64,000 nucleotides of DNA from NCBI RefSeq assembly GCF_003018255.1, contig NZ_CP027440.1. One strand, 5' to 3'. Numbering within the stretch: the first letter of the stretch is position 1; every line of letters begins with the position of its first letter. The position numbers and the translations under genes were made by a program. The DNA comes from Escherichia coli (lineage in GTDB: Bacteria; Pseudomonadota; Gammaproteobacteria; Enterobacterales; Enterobacteriaceae). Below are positions 36,863 to 46,522 of the stretch, in pieces. The notes beneath the pieces were generated by a model. The model was not told the origin of the DNA and made no database searches. It saw only the letters and a list, made by a program, of their open reading frames with translations.

Positions 36863-39778
36863 ATGGCAGTAAAGATTTCAGGTGTACTGAAAGACGGCAC
36901 AGGAAAACCGGTACAGAACTGCACAATCCAGCTGAAAGCAAAACGTAACAGTACCACGGTGGTGGTGAACACGCTGGCCTCAGAAAATCCGGATGAAGCC
37001 GGGCGTTACAGCATGGACGTTGAGTACGGTCAGTACAGCGTTATTCTGTTGGTGGAGGGATTCCCGCCGTCACATGCCGGGACCATCACCGTGTATGAAG
37101 ATTCTCAACCCGGTACGCTGAATGATTTTCTCGGTGCCATGACGGAGGATGATGCCCGTCCGGAGGCACTGCGTCGTTTTGAACTGATGGTGGAAGAGGT
37201 GGCGCGTAACGCGTCCGCGGTGGCACAGAACACGGCAGCCGCAAAGAAGTCAGCCAGCGATGCCAGCACATCTGCCCGTGAGGCGGCAACCCGTGCGACT
37301 GATGCTGCAGGCTCAGCACGCGCAGCCAGCACGTCAGCCGGACAGGCCGCGTCGTCGGCTCAGTCAGCGTCTTCCAGCGCAGGAACGGCATCAACAAAGG
37401 CCACTGAAGCATCAAAAAGTGCTGCCGCTGCTGAGTCCTCAAAAAGCGCGGCGGCCACCAGTGCCGGTGCGGCGAAAACGTCAGAAACGAATGCGGCAGC
37501 GTCACAACAATCAGCAGCCACTTCTGCATCCACCGCGACCACGAAAGCGTCAGAAGCTGCCACCTCAGCCCGGGATGCGTCGGCTTCAAAAGAGGCGGCA
37601 AAATTATCAGAAACGAGCGCAGCCTCGAGCGCCAGTAGTGCAGCCTCCTCGGCAACGGCAGCAGGCAATTCCGCGAAGGCGGCCAAAACGTCTGAGACAA
37701 ACGCTAAGTCCTCTGAAACGGCAGCAGAACAGAGTGCCTCCGCAGCAGCAGGCTCAAAAACAGCGGCTGCATTATCTGCCAGTGCCGCGTCAACAAGTGC
37801 CGGGCAGGCCTCAGCCAGTGCCACCGCCGCCGGAAAATCGGCAGAAAGTGCTGCATCGTCTGCTTCAACAGCCACAACGAATGCTGGCGAAGCCGCTGTA
37901 CAGGCCAGCGCAGCAGCGAGGTCTGCTTCCGCAGCGAAGACATCCGAGACGAACGCGAAAGCGTCGGAAACCAGCGCAGAATCCTCAAAAACGGCTGCCG
38001 CATCGTCCGCCAGTTCGGCGGCGTCATCGGCATCATCTGCGTCTGCTTCAAAAGATGAGGCGACCAGACAGGCGTCAGCAGCAAAGGGCAGCGCCACGAC
38101 GGCATCCACGAAGGCGACAGAGGCAGCTGGCAGTGCGACGGCGGCAGCTCAGAGCAAAAGTACGGCGGAATCCGCGGCAACGCGCGCCGAGACAGCGGCA
38201 AAACGGGCAGAGGATATTGCATCCGCCGTGGCGCTTGAGGATGCGAGCACGACGAAAAAGGGGATAGTACAACTCAGCAGTGCGACTAACAGCACTTCCG
38301 AGTCACTGGCGGCAACGCCAAAAGCCGTTAAGGCCGCGTATGAGCTGGCTAACGGGAAATACACCGCACAGGATGCAACGACAGCACAGAAAGGGATAGT
38401 TCAGCTTAGCAACGCGACCAACAGCACATCTGAAATGCTGGCGGCAACGCCAAAGTCGGTAAAGGCAGCCTATGACCTTGCTAACGGGAAATATACTGCT
38501 CAGGACGCTACGACAGCACAAAAAGGAATTGTCCAGCTCAGTAGTGCAACCAACAGCGCATCTGAAACGCTTGCCGCGACACCGAAAGCAGTGAAAGCAG
38601 CTAATGATAATGCGAATGGTCGGGTACCTTCTGCCCGTAAGGTGAATGGTAAGGCGCTTTCATCGGATATAACACTGACGCCGAAAGATATTGGTACGCT
38701 TAACTCAACAACAATGTCATTCAGCGGTGGTGCTGGTTGGTTCAAATTAGCAACGGTAACCATGCCACAGGCGAGTTCTGTTGTTTCAATTACGTTGATT
38801 GGTGGCGCGGGATTTAACGTGGGGTCACCTCAACAGGCAGGTATATCTGAACTTGTTTTGCGTGCAGGTAATGGTAATCCGAAGGGGATTACTGGTGCTT
38901 TATGGCAGCGCACATCGACAGGGTTTACAAATTTTGCCTGGGTCAATACATCTGGTGATACTTACGATATTTACGTTGCAATCGGAAATTATGCGACTGG
39001 TGTAAATATTCAATGGGATTATACCAGTAATGCCAGCGTGACGATTCATACGTCACCAGCATATTCTGCTAATAAGCCGGAAGGGTTAACGGACGGTACA
39101 GTTTATTCACTCTATACGCCATCAGAGCAGTTTTATCCGCCTGGCGCACCAATCCCGTGGCCATCAGATACCGTTCCGTCTGGCTATGCCCTGATGCAGG
39201 GGCAGACTTTTGACAAATCTGCATACCCGAAACTTGCAGCCGCTTATCCGTCAGGCGTGATCCCTGATATGCGTGGCTGGACGATTAAGGGCAAACCTGC
39301 CAGTGGTCGGGCCGTATTGTCTCAGGAACAGGACGGCATTAAATCGCACACCCACAGCGCCAGCGCATCCAGTACGGAATTGGGGACGAAAACCACATCG
39401 TCGTTTGATTACGGCACTAAATCCACGAATAACACCGGGGCGCACACGCACAGTGTGAGCGGTACAGCCGCAAGTGCCGGAAACCATACTCATAGTGTCA
39501 CAGGCGCATCAGCAGTCAGCCAGTGGTCACAAAATGGGTCAGTACATAAGGTAGTGTCTGCGGCCAGTGTGAATACAAGTGCTGCAGGAGCGCACACTCA
39601 TAGTGTCAGCGGCACAGCTGCATCTGCAGGTGCTCACGCACATACTGTCGGTATTGGTGCTCATACGCACTCTGTTGCGATTGGCTCACATGGACACACC
39701 ATCACCGTTAACGCTGCTGGTAACGCGGAAAACACCGTCAAAAACATCGCATTTAACTACATTGTGAGGCTTGCATAA
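36863..39778 (+). CDS. stf: side tail fibre protein Stf (full length)
   Basis: [37 protein letters not shown]... = lambda Stf N-terminus. It has a long Ala/Ser/Thr-rich shaft, three tail-fibre repeats and a C-terminal HxH repeat region. Confidence 0.92.
38258..38620 (+). repeat. 2.75 tandem copies of a 132-bp (44-aa) phage tail-fibre repeat inside stf
   Basis: KGIVQLS(S/N)ATNS(T/A)SE(S/M/T)LAATPK(A/S)VKAAY(E/D)[15 protein letters not shown] starting at 38258, 38390 and 38522. Confidence 0.9.
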
Positions 39779-40362
39779 TGGCATTCAGAATGAGTGAACA
39801 ACCACGGACCATAAAAATTTATAATCTGCTGGCCGGAACTAATGAATTTATTGGTGAAGGTGACGCATATATTCCGCCTCATACAGGTCTGCCAGCAAAC
39901 AGTACCTATATTGCACCGCCAGATATTCCGGCTGGCTTCGTGGCTGTTTTCAACAGTGATGAGGCATCGTGGCATCTCGTTGAAGATCATCGGGGTAAAA
40001 CGGTTTATGACGTGGCTTCCGGCGACGCGTTATTTATTTCTGAACTCGGCTCATTACCGGAAAATGTCACCTGGTTATCCCCGGAAGGGGAGTTTCAGAA
40101 GTGGAACGGCACAGCCTGGGTGAAAGATGCAGAAGCAGAAAAACTATTCCGGATCCGGGAGGCGGAAGAAACAAAAAACAGCCTGATGCAGGCAGCGAAT
40201 GAGCATATTGCGCCACTTCAGGATGCTGTGGATCTGGAGATCGCAACGGAAGAAGAGGCGTCGTTGCTGGCAGCATGGAAGAAGTATCGGGTGTTGCTGA
40301 ACCGTGTTGATACATCAGTAGCACCGGATATTGAGTGGCCTGCTGTCCCTGTTATGGAGTAA
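39778..40362 (+). CDS. tfa: tail fibre assembly chaperone Tfa
   Basis: 194 aa, [43 protein letters not shown]...EWPAVPVME = lambda Tfa. Confidence 0.95.
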
Positions 40363-40465
40363 TCGTTTTGAGATACGCCGCATACACGTTGTATGCAATA
40401 ACGTGCTGCGGCTTGGTAAATTTTAGCTAGTTTCAGCAGGAGACATAAAAAACTTCAATATAAGA

Positions 40466-41254
40466 TTAAGCATCACGTATTGCCAATCTGATTTTTGACT
40501 GATACCAATTGGGGCCTTCTGCAATTATTTCTTCCTCAACATGCATGATGGGATGCATTTCAATTTCAGAGTTTTTGACTTTTAGATCTAGTCCATATTT
40601 TTTTGAAATTTGTAAAACTTCATTTTTGAAATCCTTATCTGCGAAAGGTGAAATCCTTATTTCTTCCAACAGATTGTTAAGAGATACAGGGACTAGTTTT
40701 CCCTTTACAGGTGGAGTGTTAAAGGTATTCTCTTGAAAAATAGCTCTAAACTCTTTTTCGTATTCGAAAGATGGTCTCTTGTTAAAGAATACATCTGATT
40801 CTGGATTGTATTGTTTTATCCAGAAATTTTTGACGTATTTTACGTGTTTTAATTGTAGTTTGTTTAAATTATTATTTTCAAGTTGGCTTTGGAGGTTTTT
40901 TTTCTTTGATTTTATGACAACGCCTTTAGCGGGGTTTTTACAATACAGCTTCCACATAGCTTCAGATTCATGTTCGTTACAATGCCAGCAACTTATATAT
41001 GTCCTCTCGCTTATTTCCTTAAGTGTCTTTAAATTGAATGCCATGAAAGGATCTAAGTCCATGCCGGCACCATGAGTAGCGCATAGTTTTTCCTGTGTCT
41101 CAATGAATTTTTTATAGCCAGTATGTCCCCAAGCAAATTCACCTTCGAATGGATCTTCAAAATTTTTTGCTGAGCAAAAAAATAAAGCATTTTGTTCGAG
41201 TAACATAGAGAATTTCTCTATGTCAAGGTATCGCCATATATACTCAGTGTGCAT
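40466..41254 (-). CDS. DUF2971-like protein (262 aa), accessory b-region gene
   Basis: IWRYLDIEKFSMLLEQNALFFCSAKNFEDPFEGEF and YISCWHCNEHESEAMWKLYC match my recollection of the DUF2971 signature (FNDPFE ... S.W...ES.AMW..Y). AAGGAG lies 6 nt before the ATG at 41254. AT-rich. Confidence 0.65.
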   Translation of the reverse strand: MHTEYIWRYLDIEKFSMLLEQNALFFCSAKNFEDPFEGEFAWGHTGYKKFIETQEKLCATHGAGMDLDPFMAFNLKTLKEISERTYISCWHCNEHESEAMWKLYCKNPAKGVVIKSKKKNLQSQLENNNLNKLQLKHVKYVKNFWIKQYNPESDVFFNKRPSFEYEKEFRAIFQENTFNTPPVKGKLVPVSLNNLLEEIRISPFADKDFKNEVLQISKKYGLDLKVKNSEIEMHPIMHVEEEIIAEGPNWYQSKIRLAIRDA

Positions 41255-41380
41255 GATAGCTCCTTGCAATATAACTATTTCTATCTGTTCATTTGTACTT
41301 AAAAAGGATTGAGTAGCCTGAACAGTTCTATCCGTAAATATACCAGATAGAAGAGTTGTACAATAACAAATCCTCCGTAT

Positions 41381-41421
41381 AAGAACCAGCCATAATAGTC
41401 TGGTTCTTAAGGTTTTTTTTT
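41381..41421 (+). terminator. hairpin plus T9 tract (plus-strand terminator-like) between the two minus-strand accessory genes
   Basis: AAGAACCAG-CCATAATAGT-CTGGTTCTT, then AAGG and nine T (41413-41421). Confidence 0.4.
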
Positions 41422-41427
41422 GTTCGA

Positions 41428-41437
41428 GGGGGGGGGG
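41428..41437. repeat. G10 homopolymer tract
   Basis: Ten consecutive G, 30 nt downstream of the 400-aa gene's stop and ~175 nt upstream of the DUF2971-like gene's start. Confidence 0.9.
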
Positions 41438-41466
41438 CTACGATTCGTCCCCATATCGGCGATAAA

Positions 41467-42669
41467 TTAGGCTTGTACCAACGCTTCTGTTTCTGTGAGT
41501 GAAATCTGATAGCGTTTTACTGCCTCAGCAAAGGCGTGCGCGGCATCTGCATTTGATACCATATATTCTTCAGTTACCCCTGTTTGAGAATGGAAAGTAA
41601 TATTTCCATAAATGCAAATAGGGATTTGGTAGTTGTCTTTAAAACGACGGTCTGGTGAGCCATTCTTATTCGTTTTCGCCCATGTATAACCATCTATGCG
41701 TGAGTCACTGGGAACACCTTCTTCCTCATGGAATCTTAGATATTCTGAACTAATTTGTAATTCGCGTAAATCAATCAGAGCGAATGCTCCATCAGCTCGT
41801 GGTATGACTGCAACTCCAGGATAAAGCAAAATATCGTCTCCATTTACATTTTCAAACCTCATCGCACGCCCTGTAAATTGAATGAGATCCGTTGAACTAA
41901 AATCAAAGGTAACTGGGTGACGATTAACAGACCGGGTTGCTAATGTTCTTTCAGCAAACTGGTCTGTAGCTTTATCTGCAGTAATATCCCATTTTTTGAC
42001 ACTCGATTTTAACATATCAAATGCATGGACCATCGCTGCATATGCGCGCTGTGAAGCATCACTGCTCTCGAATGTTATGGCTATTTTTGTGCTGTCTTCC
42101 CATGAAACTAGGCGAGATATCTCAGCTTGGGTTAGGGGGAGTAGTGTCTCAAGTTCTGCGATGCGTCGTTTGTAAAACCAACGGAATAGACTTGATTTGC
42201 GTCGAGCCAGCTCGCTTTTTTGTTTTGATTCTTCGGCAAGAGCCTCTTGAAGATCTGCTTTTATCTCTGCTCTTTGTTCTCGTGCTTTAGCAATCAAATC
42301 TCGTAAAGGTAAAAGGGAGGTACTTGTAAGGACTTCTACCGAAGCGCTGGATATTTCATTCATGCCAGCTACAGGCATATATATTTTAGCGTTCGATGGT
42401 GTGTTTTCTGGAGATGACCCAGACTCCAAATGAGGTTCTGTAGGGGCTGGATTTAATGGATTGGTAACTGAGTATCCATCATCATAGGGCAAGGTAGGTG
42501 TAGTATAAGATAAGCCTGTGCCCGGTAATCCGACAGTTGCTCTAACCCCTTTTTTACCAACATTGACAGTTGCGCCAGGCACGCCAATGCTTGCACTTAT
42601 TCCACGCTTGCCAATGTTGAGTCGAACGCCAGGAAATAGAGTAAAGGTTTGTCTGAAACGAAGAGACAT
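41467..42669 (-). CDS. DUF4236-like N-terminal domain protein with ~340-aa uncharacterised C-terminal region
   Basis: MSLRFRQTFTLFPGVRLNIGKRGISASIGVPGATVNVGKKGVRATVGLPGTGLSYT matches the remembered DUF4236 repeat pattern. A Pro-rich linker, a predicted coiled-coil (REQRAEIKADLQEALAEESKQKSELARRK) and a beta-rich C-terminus follow. Confidence 0.65.
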   Translation of the reverse strand: MSLRFRQTFTLFPGVRLNIGKRGISASIGVPGATVNVGKKGVRATVGLPGTGLSYTTPTLPYDDGYSVTNPLNPAPTEPHLESGSSPENTPSNAKIYMPVAGMNEISSASVEVLTSTSLLPLRDLIAKAREQRAEIKADLQEALAEESKQKSELARRKSSLFRWFYKRRIAELETLLPLTQAEISRLVSWEDSTKIAITFESSDASQRAYAAMVHAFDMLKSSVKKWDITADKATDQFAERTLATRSVNRHPVTFDFSSTDLIQFTGRAMRFENVNGDDILLYPGVAVIPRADGAFALIDLRELQISSEYLRFHEEEGVPSDSRIDGYTWAKTNKNGSPDRRFKDNYQIPICIYGNITFHSQTGVTEEYMVSNADAAHAFAEAVKRYQISLTETEALVQA

Positions 42670-43114
42670 AAAGTTATACCTATGTAGTTTTGTACACCAA
42701 AGTTCGAAATGTTTTTATATGAATATTGAGCTGATTCATAAGATTATTCCTAGCTCATCTTCATTCCGCCATGATACAACGGTTTGCTTGCAGGTGAAGA
42801 AAAACGTAAAAGCCCAATAATGATTGGTGGGCTGGTGGAGTTGAAACCGCAGGCTCGTCGTCTGCAAGAAAGTGCTGCGGCTGGCTGGTCAGCTTCTGAT
42901 AGTGAGAATATTGAATGATTTCAAGCTGTTATCGATTTTGCGTATTTTTTGTATGGGAGGATTTGTGCCTCCTCCCATCGGTCCTCCATGACTTTACGCC
43001 ACTGTCTCTAGGGCTGCTATGTGCCAGAAGCTGACATGGCTAGTCCCTAGGCACATTGACCAGCAGGTCATCCATCCCTTAACATATCGTTATGAAATTT
43101 AAAGGATCGATGTT

Positions 43115-43744
43115 ATGGCTTATGAATTAACTTACAGACCCCTCGAATACGGATCGAATGAAAATTATCTTCGCAGAAGTTTGAAAGACCCTTCATTACT
43201 AATTCCTGAAAAAGAGATAGGATGTTTTCTAGTTCTCCAATCCTCATATGCACTACATGAAACTATTGGACTTTCAGCCCAAAACCTAGATATTTCATGG
43301 CAGTCTAACCAAAATTACTTATCGTCAAATTGTGATGGTGAGGCCCCTCTAGCTTGTTATCCTATTTATTTGATTACAGTTGGAGATGATGAAAATGAAA
43401 GGCTTGTTTACATCGGCAAGACATCATCGAAGAGCTCACGATTTTCTTCAGGCCATAGCGCAATTACTAAGTTACACCATCCTAAATATGACAATTTGTC
43501 AAAGCGTATATATTTGTGCTGCGTTGTTTTTTTAAAAAACAGCCAAACCATCCCAATAGAATGGATTAAGCCTTTTGATTTCGCTGAGAAACTATTGAGT
43601 GAATTTGAAGCGAACTTGATTTATTGGAATAAACCAGAGTTGAATACGCAACATATGAAGAAAGAACCTACATTTGAATATGGGCAAGTTCATGCACAAA
43701 ATGTAACTGGCGCAACGTATTTTTGGCATGATAAATTCATTTAG
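43115..43744 (+). CDS. GIY-YIG-like nuclease domain protein (209 aa) with ~80-aa N-terminal extension
   Basis: P83-I-Y...(13 aa)...Y99-I-G-K-T...R109...H114...E163/E165...N172 aligns with I-TevI GIYQIKN...VYVGSA..R..H...ERENFWIKELN. AAAGGA SD. Confidence 0.6.
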   Translation: MAYELTYRPLEYGSNENYLRRSLKDPSLLIPEKEIGCFLVLQSSYALHETIGLSAQNLDISWQSNQNYLSSNCDGEAPLACYPIYLITVGDDENERLVYIGKTSSKSSRFSSGHSAITKLHHPKYDNLSKRIYLCCVVFLKNSQTIPIEWIKPFDFAEKLLSEFEANLIYWNKPELNTQHMKKEPTFEYGQVHAQNVTGATYFWHDKFI

Positions 43745-44171
43745 AACTATATAAACAAAACTTGAGTTAATTCTCTATTTTCCGCACTTTTTTTCCAATG
43801 AGTTCTACATATTGGTCAAGATTGTGCTCAAGGGCGCAATAAACTTAGTATTGCGTCTGTAATTCGCTCAGACTGTGTGAAAACGGTTTAAGCTTCAGAG
43901 GTGAATGCAAAAGAGGCTGACGCCTGCGCTTTTAAGTAAAATCTGCATCATCTTTCTATGTAAATTTTCTAAGAAGTCATCTAAACGCGTGACCTTCTGT
44001 CAGCAATCAGAGTTTTCATACAGCCTGCGTTCGAAGCTGCCCTTGGGCCCGCCTATGGCAGTTGAGTGCCAGAAGCGGACATTTTAACTAATATTCAGCA
44101 TGTTTATCATTATGTCACACGCAAAATGATAAATTAATATATTCAGAGGATTTTTTAACTCAAAAATGGCG

Positions 44172-44199
44172 TTGTAATTCAATGAACCATGCCTATAAT
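44172..44199 (+). promoter_or_regulatory. candidate sigma-70 promoter for the DUF3800-like gene
   Basis: TTGTAA-16 nt-TATAAT, ending 39 nt upstream of the TTG start at 44238. Confidence 0.35.
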
Positions 44200-44237
44200 C
44201 TAACATAAAAATAATATATCATTGAAAGGATAAGGCT

Positions 44238-44972
44238 TTGAATATTTACATTGATGAGTCGATACACGAGGAGTTTGGGTTTATGATCTTGGCTTATGTA
44301 GTTTGTAATCAGGATCCTCAGTCTGATATATACAAGATTCTTTCAGAACATTCAGTTGATGAACATCACTCATGCGCAAGAATGGATAAATCTGAATCTT
44401 TAAGAAATTTGAGGAGTAATCTTATTTCCTACTTAAACGCAAATTGTCGATGGGGGGCATTTATTATGCCAAGTGAGTATCGCCATCGTTCTTATGAGGA
44501 TGTGTCTTTTTTATTAAGCTTATTGATTAAGAATTTTCCAGACAGGAAAGGGAATATTTTTTTCGATGAAGGTATCATAAACCCTACAGAAGCTCTCAGT
44601 CTATGCTCTGATGAAGTCAAAGTTATAACATGCTCATCCCATGAAGTTTGTGGGATACAACTTGCTGATCTAGTAGCATCTTTTAGTGGTGTTAGGTTGA
44701 GAGAAACAATAACAGGAAAAGCAAAAATTTTAACTTACGGTTACGACTTCGGCTATGAGCCCCCAATAGAATCCCCGCTTGGATTTGAGCTTTTTGCTAC
44801 ACTTCGACAATCTATGCTCAGGGGAAATGAACCTCTTGGGAATGAGATGCCTGAATTTGCCACATTTAAAACTATTAATAAAGGATTGGTTTTGTCGAAA
44901 AACTTAACAACTGAATTTAGTCAGTTGGCATTAAAAACCTTTGGGGAAGTGTACTTAGGTTGCATCCATTAA
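44238..44972 (+). CDS. DUF3800-like protein (244 aa, TTG start)
   Basis: N-terminal NIYIDESIHEEFG and later GIQLADLVA match the remembered DUF3800 hallmarks (Y.DESG ... Q.AD). AAGGA lies 8 nt upstream of the TTG. Confidence 0.6.
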   Translation: MNIYIDESIHEEFGFMILAYVVCNQDPQSDIYKILSEHSVDEHHSCARMDKSESLRNLRSNLISYLNANCRWGAFIMPSEYRHRSYEDVSFLLSLLIKNFPDRKGNIFFDEGIINPTEALSLCSDEVKVITCSSHEVCGIQLADLVASFSGVRLRETITGKAKILTYGYDFGYEPPIESPLGFELFATLRQSMLRGNEPLGNEMPEFATFKTINKGLVLSKNLTTEFSQLALKTFGEVYLGCIH

Positions 44973-45220
44973 ATGTAATATTACTATTTATCAATTACTA
45001 GCAAAATTAAGCTAGGTGTTCCTAAGAATATAGGTGACGATGATACAACTGACTTCCGCTTTTCGCTCATAACAGACATTCACTACAGTTATGGTAGAAG
45101 GTATGCATGCTGGGTGGGGAAAGTATGAAGGAAAAGAAGACTGCCGCGCCGTTTGTCGTCACATTTATCTTCATTGGCTATGCAAGTCGTAATACAAGGT
45201 GGGACAAAACAGAGACACAT

Positions 45221-45251
45221 AAGGTCTCACAAAGGTCTGCAAGGCCTCACA
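45221..45251 (+). repeat. three tandem ~10-bp repeats, candidate integrase arm-type binding sites in the att P arm
   Basis: AAGGTCTCACA / AAGGTCTGC / AAGGCCTCACA in helical phase, ~190-220 bp from the icd junction in AT-rich DNA. Confidence 0.3.
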
Positions 45252-45440
45252 TGTATTGAGATGTTAATAAAATGTAGACTTGTAATTTGGATATAAATGG
45301 TAGAGAAAACCTTTCCCCAAAATAAAAACGAACGTCAATGAAATCAAACGGTTGAATAAAGTTGATTTTGGCTAATAAAAAGACAATAAAATAATTTTTA
45401 TCATTAAATATCAATGAATTGAACTTAATGTTTTTATATA

Positions 45441-45605
45441 CTGTTACGCCATATGGGCTGGACTGAAGCCGCAGACCTGATTGTTAAAGGTATGGAAGGC
45501 GCAATCAACGCCAAGACTGTAACCTATGACTTCGAACGTCTGATGGAAGGCGCTAAACTGCTGAAATGCAGCGAGTTTGGTGATGCGATCATCAAGAACA
45601 TGTAA
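45441..45605 (+). pseudogene. icdC: displaced native 3' end of isocitrate dehydrogenase gene (icdC), marks attR
   Basis: Translates [54 protein letters not shown], the last ~54 residues of Icd, with no upstream icd sequence. 165 bp, as for the K-12 e14 icdC. Confidence 0.9.
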
Positions 45606-45628
45606 TCTCTACATGTGTTAAATATTGA

Positions 45629-45660
45629 AACGGGCGTATAACACGCCCGTTGTTTTATTT
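45629..45660 (+). terminator. icd rho-independent terminator
   Basis: AACGGGCGT-ATAAC-ACGCCCGTT followed by GTTTTATTT. Confidence 0.8.
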
Positions 45661-45707
45661 ATGTGGATATTATTAATAGCATGTCGAGCATATTTATATG
45701 AAGCCCA

Positions 45708-46031
45708 TTACTTGAGTCCATATGGGCATATTTTTATAATACAACTATTATGCAAACATTTATTTGGTATTTCGCTTTCTCCAGGAGGACACTCTTGACT
45801 GCTTTTGAGTAAACTCCATAAATCCTTGTTAAATGGTGCGATGTTATAAATAGTAATAGGGTATTCTTTATCCTTAAGGATAATACCAGACTTAACCGGT
45901 GTAAATATACTTCCAGGAGGGAGAAATATAGTAGATTGATACCAGATGATCATTTTCATATCACCCCATATGGCTGAAAAAGATATGCCGCATGTAGGTT
46001 GAATTAACGTGTCAATTACTATCCACTTCAT
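45708..46031 (-). CDS. iraM: anti-adaptor protein IraM (RpoS stabiliser)
   Basis: 107 aa, [69 protein letters not shown]... matches K-12 IraM. Confidence 0.9.
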
Positions 46032-46472
46032 TTGTTATGTCTTATCCCACGGTATTTAATATAGTTCATTAGGATGTTCATTTCTTGATTTTGCATATGA
46101 GTATATTATCCCCTCAAAAATATTAATTAAAAATTAAAACCGTTGCCTATATAAAACAAAATTTAAAGCAAGAAATCTCAATAGATATTAAACAAAATGA
46201 TATTTAGTGAAAACAATAAATTATTCACTTCGTTTTAGATTTGTTTAGCTATAATGTTATACATTCAAATGACTGAACATCATGTAATTAAAACATAGCC
46301 TTTATGCTACTTTGTGCCAATTTGCTAAATATTATGGTTGCATTTTTATATAACGATAATAATGAATATAAGCATGACATGAGAATAAGGTTTCAATTTT
46401 TGAGTTATATAGGAATGGTTAAACCCGTTCCTGACTAAAATACATATAATCGGATGATGACTAAACCAAAAC

Positions 46473-46522
46473 ACATGTGCGTTAAGTATTGAAACGGGCG
46501 TATGGCACGCCCGTTGGTTTTA
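46473..46522 (+). repeat. second diverged copy of the icd 3' UTR/terminator
   Basis: ACATGTGCGTTAAGTATTGAAACGGGCGTATGGCACGCCCGTTGGTTTTA versus ACATGTGTTAAATATTGAAACGGGCGTATAACACGCCCGTTGTTTTA at 45611-45657. Confidence 0.85.

Follow-up and report, generated by a model that had tools for sequence, protein, structure and literature searches.

Single-gene cargo units, probably acquired independently and probably with defence functions, in the tfa–attP slot of a phage-21-like prophage of Escherichia coli

In a 64 kb stretch of Escherichia coli contig NZ_CP027440.1 (assembly GCF_003018255.1; the full stretch is referred to here as the window), a phage-21-like lambdoid prophage is located at icd, and between its tail-fibre assembly gene, tfa, and its attachment site lies an island of four genes with DUF2971, DUF4236, GIY-YIG and DUF3800 domains. 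The question that this locus raises is how these four genes came to be located next to each other, and what they do there. An earlier interpretation of the letters alone, to which we refer as the sequence-only reading, had described them as two divergent pairs located at an established site for defence cargo, and as a strong candidate for undescribed immunity systems. Our comparison with other genomes, phages and viral contigs suggests a different layout: the island is probably a row of morons in the tfa–attP slot, i.e. of cargo units with a single gene each that were acquired separately, and the genes are probably defence effectors. From its sequence, this array is a multi-cassette lambdoid version of the cargo slot that was first described in P2, because the Z-region of P2 has the same junction sites and the attP region of phage 21 has the same layout. 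In order, the array consists of a partial copy of a conserved element (E), DUF2971, DUF4236, a full copy of E ending in a short site (HP2), GIY-YIG, a second HP2, DUF3800, a related short site (HP1) and the attP arm.

The four open reading frames (ORFs) are all present in the ORF list of the window (Table 1), and the domains that had been assigned to them are borne out, with DUF2971, DUF4236 and DUF3800 above the Pfam cut-off and GIY-YIG backed by its fold and its catalytic residues. The island is AT-rich, as had been claimed, with a GC content of 0.384 (40363-45054) vs 0.501 (1-40362) and 0.555 (tail genes); low GC alone cannot separate the island from its right-hand neighbour, because the chromosomal flank on the side of iraM and ycgX is equally AT-rich (0.43 overall, 0.27-0.37 around iraM). 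The right border needed to be moved: the icd 3' fragment does start at 45441, where the sequence-only reading had ended the island, but the variable part is 40363-45054, because 45055-45440 is a conserved phage-21-type arm that is present in phage 21 and in more than 2000 E. coli genomes. The spacers between the genes are as long as had been noted (200-500 bp), measuring 212, 445, 493 and 468 bp; by our comparison, their length is explained by the junction elements that they carry, i.e. E with HP2 and the HP1 sites, which that reading had missed. The E. coli strain LD91-1 (NZ_CP042585) is 100% identical to the window.

Element E (~200 nt) comes after tfa or pinE in many other prophages and ends in the site GTGCCAGAAGCGGAC, i.e. 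HP2; the terminus of E reads GTGCCAGAAGC(G/T)GACAT, and all loci diverge immediately beyond it. The consensus of HP2 is GTCCGCTyT-GTGCCAG-AAGCGGAC, with the 17-mer usually corresponding to its loop and 3' stem, and the consensus of HP1, which is located upstream of internal HP2 copies, is GTCyGyT-yyTCGCTCAw-AGCrGAC; the two sites share their inverted arms and have distinct centres. The HP2 motif occurs at only two places in the window, both of them cassette borders, with 0.17 occurrences expected by chance; a degenerate HP1-like stretch is located ~30-55 nt upstream of the HP2 at 44066, and the HP1 of the window (45054-45077) is a hybrid, with left and right half-stems from different variants. 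Because the 51-nt start of E also follows the stop codon of tfa, the segment of DUF2971 and DUF4236 is framed by a partial and a full copy of E. RefSeq annotates a 44-residue ORF (WP_001297180.1, 42784-42918) that overlaps E; it is probably no gene, because other copies of E show a frameshift or a preceding stop codon.

Some further observations concern the junction elements themselves. The start of E contains a near-perfect inverted repeat at 40378-40413 (GCCGCA-TA-CACGTT-(9)-AACGTG-C-TGCGGC), and the segment of DUF2971 and DUF4236 begins right after it; the pin-type variant of E keeps only the outer 6 bp of this repeat, which may be a third junction site. Some HP2 sites adjoin the 3' ends of tRNA genes (viral contigs L051 and L107), so that cassettes can abut tRNA-linked integration sites. 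HP2 was also considered as a terminator, as a binding site of CRP or LexA and as a sigma-54 promoter, and these readings were dropped, given the wrong spacing, the lack of a U-run and an orientation that tracks the array rather than the genes. Rfam had no match in the spacers and junctions, either at 40000-46500 (E<=1) or in 16 related loci; its only matches were IS009 in tfa, and sok and CyaR elsewhere. Literature searches for the site sequences or for a described cassette system returned nothing relevant. HP2 may resemble the sfx sites of the shufflon recombinase Rci, which have a GTGCCAA core and a conserved right arm.

The sites lead from the lambdoid island to P2. One viral contig provides a 97-nt HP2 context that aligns with P2-like phages immediately behind gene G. 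In GenBank entries AJ512676-AJ512683, this sequence is annotated as a 'left inverted repeat' and assigned to the proviral Z-region, where a 'right inverted repeat' starts with HP1; the entries belong to Nilsson, Karlsson & Haggard-Ljungquist 2004 (Mol Biol Evol 21:1). In P2-EC58 (locus L159), the HP2 repeat is located at 3-115, after gene G, and HP1 (GTCTGTTTTTCGCTCAAAGCAGAC) from 1743 onward; in P2 itself HP2 (locus L166, 1045-1059) likewise comes after gene G, and fun(Z), which is annotated as blocking T5, sits between HP2 and HP1. The island has the same parts, i.e. a left repeat that ends in HP2, a right repeat that begins with HP1, and variable cargo between them; as in the Z/fun ('TO') region of P2, the cargo directly follows a tail-fibre assembly gene and is variable and of low GC, the P2 cargo including the classic anti-phage gene fun(Z). 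The differences are that the host is here a lambdoid phage of the phage-21 type, that the right anchor is the attP arm instead of gene FI, that the ~200-nt E leads to HP2, that several cassettes with internal junctions stand in tandem, and that the four cargo genes are unmatched in deposited phage records, including the entries of the P2 Z-region.

In order to see how widely such junctions occur, viral contigs were scanned for the 15-mer of HP2, which returned at least 120 stretches; the contig figures given here concern the matches listed. Of 123 exact matches, ~60 have a complementary left arm or an HP1 upstream, and the remaining half or so, which have no flanking context and look like chance occurrences, were excluded. 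In 30 of the 59 true HP2 contexts, one or two ORFs come next on the downstream side and then an HP1, at a distance of 0.55-2.1 kb. At least seven cargo clusters occur behind two or more unrelated upstream contexts, at least 12 upstream contexts lead into two or more different cargos, and in every case the join is at the site; the homology of cassettes begins or ends at the sites in at least five unrelated contexts; a strict search for the composite HP1-N-HP2 found 6 loci only. Relative to the sites, the cargo genes may point either way, which speaks for a role of the sites at the level of the DNA. When 20 of 51 cargo representatives, picked by eye and thus not at random, were compared with PADLOC, 15 matched: among them are PD-T4-3 (E 4e-137), DarT with DarG, PtuA/PtuB-type proteins (Septu-like), a retron reverse transcriptase, a type IV restriction enzyme (mREase_IV), PD-T7-3 and NsnA, together with the candidates PDC-S35, PDC-S49 and PDC-S06. 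The cassette class is thus rich in defence genes, yet broader than defence.

The same holds for the slot. The tfa-to-attP interval at icd carries cargo that differs between elements: sitABCD and one ORF in phage 21 and in Nissle 1917, sitABCD in BH100, and a McrBC-type system in EC195. The precedent that the sequence-only reading had drawn from e14 is also confirmed, with mcrA located beside attR and lit near the opposite end in the K-12 element, where no HP sites flank mcrA. Its further step, that the position is a cargo site for defence genes, stands only in part: the slot is variable and the positional argument is sound, but the cargo includes non-defence genes, e.g. sitABCD. Position in the slot does not by itself imply defence; transporters and GNAT, NUDIX, HAD and LysR genes share the slot or the cassette type. 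Beside its attP, phage 21 has HP2, one ORF and HP1. Three minor observations belong here: the uncharacterised 252-residue ORF CPT_21_31 of phage 21 (locus L014, 6172-6930) lies in an HP2...HP1 cassette, 3' of sitABCD and a partial E; in the Qin prophage of K-12 (locus L165, 5982-6996), flxA is located between degenerate HP2-like and HP1-like sequences, a weak resemblance with 2-3 mismatches; and a similarly weak HP1-like sequence (2-3 mismatches) is located 17 nt past the stop codon of lit in e14 of K-12 (locus L160, 4606-4620).

The whole island is present in 30 of 5426 complete E. coli genomes. Its left 2.7 kb (DUF2971 and DUF4236) occurs in 121, including a remnant that is integrated at thrW, and its right 2 kb (GIY-YIG and DUF3800) in 30, with the GIY-YIG part alone in one further genome. 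In 50,697 deposited phage genomes, the four proteins are unmatched at E<=1e-10, barring a distant homologue of the DUF4236 family in Microcystis phages; none of the four is a core phage gene.

The best supported of the four, with respect to defence, is the DUF2971 protein (Pfam E 8e-7, 30.7 bits vs a cut-off of 22). RefSeq sets a later start (246 residues), and homologues of 262 residues favour the start at 41254. The DUF2971 family has been placed among the ADP-ribosyltransferases (ARTs) as a relative of DarT and AbiGi in which a Tyr and an ExE motif are conserved (PMC12522546); the ART core described there, i.e. the Tyr of motif II and the ExE of motif III, is conserved here, as Y140, E166 and E168 (E166-x-E168) are invariant across 24 homologues, with K159 and R170 likewise listed as invariant. 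The PADLOC model PDC-S31 (PDLC04993) matches the protein with E 3.5e-20, and Aristaios, a validated lactococcal single-gene abortive infection system, is also a DUF2971 protein (PMC11381338). Most likely, by these resemblances, the protein is ADP-ribosyltransferase-like and belongs to the Aristaios/PDC-S31 family, and we regard an anti-phage role as reasonably probable; it would ADP-ribosylate DNA or protein and lead to abortive infection, like DarT and Aristaios. The likeness to Aristaios and PDC-S31 rests on the shared domain, with an ART-like core, a stand-alone gene and a mobile carrier on both sides, while host and carrier differ, being here an enterobacterium and a prophage. With DarT of the DarTG system, to which DUF2971 is reported to be related, the protein shares the conserved Tyr and ExE (PMC12522546); it differs in that its family is not DUF4433 and no macrodomain antitoxin is adjacent, PADLOC having found no DarT or DarG match and the island having no macrodomain ORF. 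By nucleotide comparison, the unit that is common to a P2-like prophage of Enterobacter is 40466-41272; the gene is solitary at the end of this type of prophage (Enterobacter soli) and in a Pseudomonas prophage, with neither DUF4236 nor a fixed partner.

The GIY-YIG assignment is right despite a weak Pfam match (E 0.002, below the cut-off), because both the fold and the residues agree with it: the best structural match is a phage enzyme, T4 EndoII, and Y85, Y99-I-G101, R109, H114, E165 and N177, i.e. the catalytic set of the superfamily, are invariant in an alignment of 35 homologues. From these features the protein is a nuclease, with an additional N-terminal domain of ~75 residues in front of the nuclease part. 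Its cassette has a promoter-like site at 43056-43085 and spans 43038 to ~44080; in the E. coli strain Eco_23-2667, the same cassette is located between two HP2 sites (locus L018, 6984-7000 and 8029-8045), in an island with HEPN, kinase, FRG and helicase genes. Elsewhere, the gene is solitary in Aeromonas, located next to IS110 and an Mrr-type gene in Photobacterium, and part of an island with HNH, HEPN and integrase genes in Priestia. The closest precedent is PD-T4-3, the E. coli GIY-YIG restriction endonuclease specific for 5-hydroxymethylcytosine, which has the same fold, is likewise a single gene and is itself found as an HP2-bounded cassette in viral contig L143; the GIY-YIG protein of the island is not matched by the PADLOC model of PD-T4-3 and has no meaningful match among the other PADLOC models. 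By analogy with these neighbourhoods and with PD-T4-3, the case for a restriction-like role is evenly balanced, and the protein would be expected to cut phage DNA.

The DUF3800 protein (PF12686; E 5e-7, 31 bits vs a cut-off of 21) carries the N-terminal DE and the C-terminal QxxD motif, as D6-E7 and Q141-LA-D144, that are described in PMC7736814; for this family, an RNase H-like fold and accessory roles in retron type VII and CRISPR systems have been reported (PMC7736814 for the motifs). Its cassette is sharply bounded, since homology to Pectobacterium, Enterobacter and viral contigs begins exactly at HP2 and ends at ~45077, while the sequences upstream are mutually unrelated. In six loci (Pectobacterium, Enterobacter and four viral contigs) the gene is solitary, and in Enterobacter and one viral contig HP2 is located on both sides of the cassette. 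Of the 493-bp spacer, the cassette takes in only the last ~172 nt, in which a conserved promoter, TTGTAA-16-TATAAT, is located at 44172-44199. The protein shares the Pfam domain and the DE...QxxD motifs with the known DUF3800 accessory proteins (retron type VII, TPR-DUF3800 with Cas12a2/a3, and Csx32), from which it differs in standing alone, with no reverse transcriptase, Cas gene, TPR domain or associated RNA motif; at 40000-46500, there is neither a reverse transcriptase ORF nor an Rfam match of the kind expected for a type VII retron. It may act as an RNase H-like nuclease, and a defence role is conceivable to a degree that falls slightly short of the GIY-YIG case. The idea that the 493-bp spacer holds one of the DUF3800-associated RNAs (DUF3800-I to XI) was rejected: Rfam gave no match at E<=1, and the 5' region of the gene folds no better than shuffled sequences (z -0.72) and has no covariation support.

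The DUF4236 protein matches Pfam with E 3e-21, at its N-terminal residues 3-56 only; residues 1-57 form a Gly-rich beta domain, which a variable linker joins to a helical hairpin (122-193), and an alpha/beta domain makes up the C-terminus. Its C-terminal 300 residues belong to a large family with 2905 cluster representatives. Full-length homologues that are 65-93% identical occur in Klebsiella, Serratia, Yersinia, Pectobacterium, Edwardsiella, Paracoccus and Phaeobacter, with 87-93% identity inside the Enterobacterales and 65-69% between E. coli and the Rhodobacterales; only the linker (58-93) varies. Such conservation is unusual for accessory cargo (loci L003, L004, L005 and L009 against 41467-42669 of the window). 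By nucleotide comparison, the unit that is common to Klebsiella is 41449-42815. The gene is solitary in every genome examined, and its GC is always below that of its surroundings; in Klebsiella it is located at the end of a prophage by ssrA, and in Serratia, Paracoccus and Phaeobacter among housekeeping genes. Longer relatives add SH3b or peptidoglycan-binding domains, a hint at the envelope. A defence role for this coiled-coil protein seems doubtful, given its strong conservation and its housekeeping neighbourhoods.

A possible agent of the cassette movement is found next to one of these cassettes. In Eco_23-2667, the HP2 in front of the GIY-YIG cassette has a frameshifted 'site-specific integrase' on its immediate upstream side; intact copies of this gene (WP_001305361.1) have 200 residues and consist of the Phage_integrase catalytic domain only, i.e. 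they are tyrosine recombinases, and they occur in 886 of the 5426 genomes (16%). In all five loci examined (E. coli KKo009, locus L163, 7014-7616; L164; L018, 6353-6956; L162; L104), an HP1 variant (TCGCTCATAAGGGAC) is located ~40 nt before the start of the recombinase gene and an HP2 28 nt past its stop, and the loci are HP1/HP2 arrays in one orientation. An identity of 'intK/ydfW' of the K-12 Qin prophage with this small recombinase was not borne out. We infer that shared arms, distinct centres and HP1 hybrids joined at the centre give the sites the look of tyrosine-recombinase core sites; two heterospecific sites around a cassette would make a clean exchange possible. Phages and islands would thus trade cassettes through recombination at the HP sites, most likely in a site-specific manner that pairs HP2 with HP2 and HP1 with HP1, in the way of recombinase-mediated cassette exchange, and the enzyme may be the 200-residue tyrosine recombinase, an HP1/HP2-flanked cassette itself. 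As in integrons, units of ~1 kb stand in tandem, their junctions are imperfect palindromes in one orientation with a fixed breakpoint in the site, and a conserved primary element, here E, heads the array; in contrast with integrons, there are two site classes instead of one, and the cargo, in either orientation, has its own promoters. The attC core has the consensus GTTRRRY, to which the HP sites are unrelated, and the island has no IntI or other integrase. In its most far-reaching form, which we offer tentatively, the proposal would be that HP1 and HP2 are heterospecific sites of a dedicated 200-residue recombinase, forming an integron-like system that moves promoter-bearing single-gene defence cassettes among P2-like phages, lambdoid prophages and enterobacterial islands, and that DUF4236, DUF3800 as a protein on its own, and the GIY-YIG family together with its N-terminal domain are new single-gene anti-phage systems.

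Against this proposal, the junctions could be short conserved linkers, with general homologous recombination or recombination of the Red/RecET type shuffling the modules, an explanation that we consider possible, though a minority view. E (~200 nt) and the inverted repeats of P2 (~90-115 nt) would offer sufficient homology for such an exchange, no recombinase is linked to the array in the window, and homologous recombination was favoured by Rousset et al. for another P2 hotspot; what argues against it is that the breakpoints fall at a 15-nt site, in which the left arm is variable while the centre and the right arm are fixed, that the two site classes agree in their inverted arms but not in their centres, with HP1 hybrids joined within the centre, and that the small tyrosine recombinase is always located between HP1 and HP2. 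Several points nevertheless count against a dedicated site-specific system, and against our interpretation of the island in general. Recombination over short homologies, e.g. by phage Red/RecET, could give similar junctions; the 200-residue recombinase is absent from the window, adjoins only a few of the sampled HP sites and may be mere cargo; the HP2 copies of the window have a degenerate left arm and its HP1 is the hybrid described above, so that the local array may be a fossil; and DUF2971 and DUF4236 are flanked by copies of E rather than by HP2 and HP1. With respect to function, PADLOC found no meaningful match for the DUF4236, GIY-YIG and DUF3800 proteins, PDC-S31 is a candidate family only, the choice of the 20 tested cargos by eye limits what their matches can tell, lone DUF4236 homologues stand amid housekeeping genes with a conservation (65-93%) that is unusual for a defence gene, and the same cassette type carries GNAT, NUDIX, HAD, glyoxalase, LysR, NmrA and ChaC genes, with sitABCD in the slot of phage 21.

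The last two of these points, together with the SH3b and peptidoglycan-binding domains of the longer DUF4236 relatives, would also fit morons with non-defence roles, i.e. host fitness, lysogenic conversion, or counter-defence during the phage's own infection; we consider this rather improbable, as three of the four, i.e. the ART-like protein, the GIY-YIG nuclease and the RNase H-like protein, have enzyme folds characteristic of immune effectors, their relatives occur in defence-type neighbourhoods, and many HP2 cassettes hold validated systems. Much less probable is that the nuclease-like genes serve selfish mobility, with GIY-YIG as a free-standing homing endonuclease and DUF3800 as an RNase H-like aid to cassette movement: their location at recombination junctions and the structural match to the phage enzyme T4 EndoII speak for it, but dozens of unrelated cargos that lack these genes are bordered by the same junction sites, the GIY-YIG family is absent from deposited phage genomes, and the protein has no DNA-binding tail of the NUMOD or helix-turn-helix type, as in Seg or Tev. 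The divergent pairs of the sequence-only reading fare no better. If DUF4236 with DUF2971 and GIY-YIG with DUF3800 were two two-gene systems (toxin-antitoxin or sensor-effector), this would agree with the joint movement of DUF2971 and DUF4236, which form a single 2.7-kb segment in 121 E. coli genomes, the second chromosomal site thrW included, and with the co-occurrence of GIY-YIG and DUF3800 in 30; at 98-100% nucleotide identity, however, the co-occurrence in E. coli reflects recent common descent. All four genes are found apart from one another in other genomes or genera: DUF4236 in Klebsiella, Serratia, Paracoccus and Phaeobacter, DUF2971 in the P2-like prophage of Enterobacter, GIY-YIG in Eco_23-2667, Aeromonas, Photobacterium and Priestia, and DUF3800 in its six loci. 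When all compared loci were searched by tblastn with the four proteins, none outside E. coli had two of them within +/-4-6 kb, and an HP2 junction separates GIY-YIG from DUF3800. The pairing is thus very improbable; on the evidence of the compared sequences, the layout in pairs is an accident of assembly, and we reject a functional pairing. For independently acquired cargo units, the defence hypothesis is plausible, as far as the domains and homologues indicate: the four genes would act separately against incoming phage, presumably expressed from the lysogen, with a promoter-like site in each of the GIY-YIG and DUF3800 cassettes.

The listed cargo of P2/P4 hotspots includes DUF2971 and DUF3800 domains (Rousset et al. 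2022), and to call these two 'undescribed immunity systems' was too strong, both having already been discussed in defence contexts. The fast turnover of defence genes in such hotspots has been called an open question (Rousset et al. 2022); short junction sites that are common to P2-like phages, lambdoid prophages and chromosomal islands offer a handle on it, and the occurrence of the same cargo with different neighbours at the same 15 nt, together with a candidate recombinase in 886 of 5426 E. coli genomes, makes cassette exchange testable. The HP sites could also act as a search key for new defence genes: because 15 of the 20 tested cargos match known or candidate systems, the unmatched cargo and the four genes described here are enriched candidates. 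If the four genes were inactive against phage, the island would be ordinary prophage cargo.

Table 1. Features of the island and of its borders, in window coordinates.
Feature	Position	Strand	Basis or remark
tfa, tail-fibre assembly gene	39778..40362	+	conserved left anchor of the cargo slot
partial E copy, first 51 nt	40363..40413	+	same as E start in insert-free strains; two-piece 205-bp matches
DUF2971 gene, 262 aa	40466..41254	-	Pfam, PADLOC, homologue lengths
DUF4236 gene, 400 aa	41467..42669	-	Pfam, residues 3-56 only
element E, full copy, ~200 nt, ends in HP2	42830..43037	+	comparison with other prophages
HP2 site GTGCCAGAAGCTGACAT	43021-43037	+	end of full E
GIY-YIG cassette	43038..44065	+	gene 43115-43744 (+), 209 aa
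second HP2 site GTGCCAGAAGCGGACAT, exact	44066..44082	+	joins the GIY-YIG and DUF3800 cassettes
DUF3800 cassette	44066..45054	+	gene 44238-44972 (+), 244 aa, TTG start
HP1 site TTCCGCTTTTCGCTCATAACAGAC	45054..45077	+	array end; also opens the phage-21-type arm
phage-21-type arm by attP/attR	45055..45440	+	90.5% identity to phage 21; conserved right anchor
displaced host icd 3' fragment (attR side)	45441..45605	+	then iraM, ycgX, bluR

Two observations concern the borders of the island. On the left, a full-length Rfam IS009 match (203 bits) is located within the coding sequence of tfa, at 40121-40319, and is also found in the related viral contig L138. On the right, a strong hairpin with a T-run (AACGGGCGT-ATAAC-ACGCCCGTT) is located at 45610-45679, directly 3' of the icd fragment; it gives a weak, sub-threshold Rfam match to tpke11, and the simplest reading is that it is the icd terminator.

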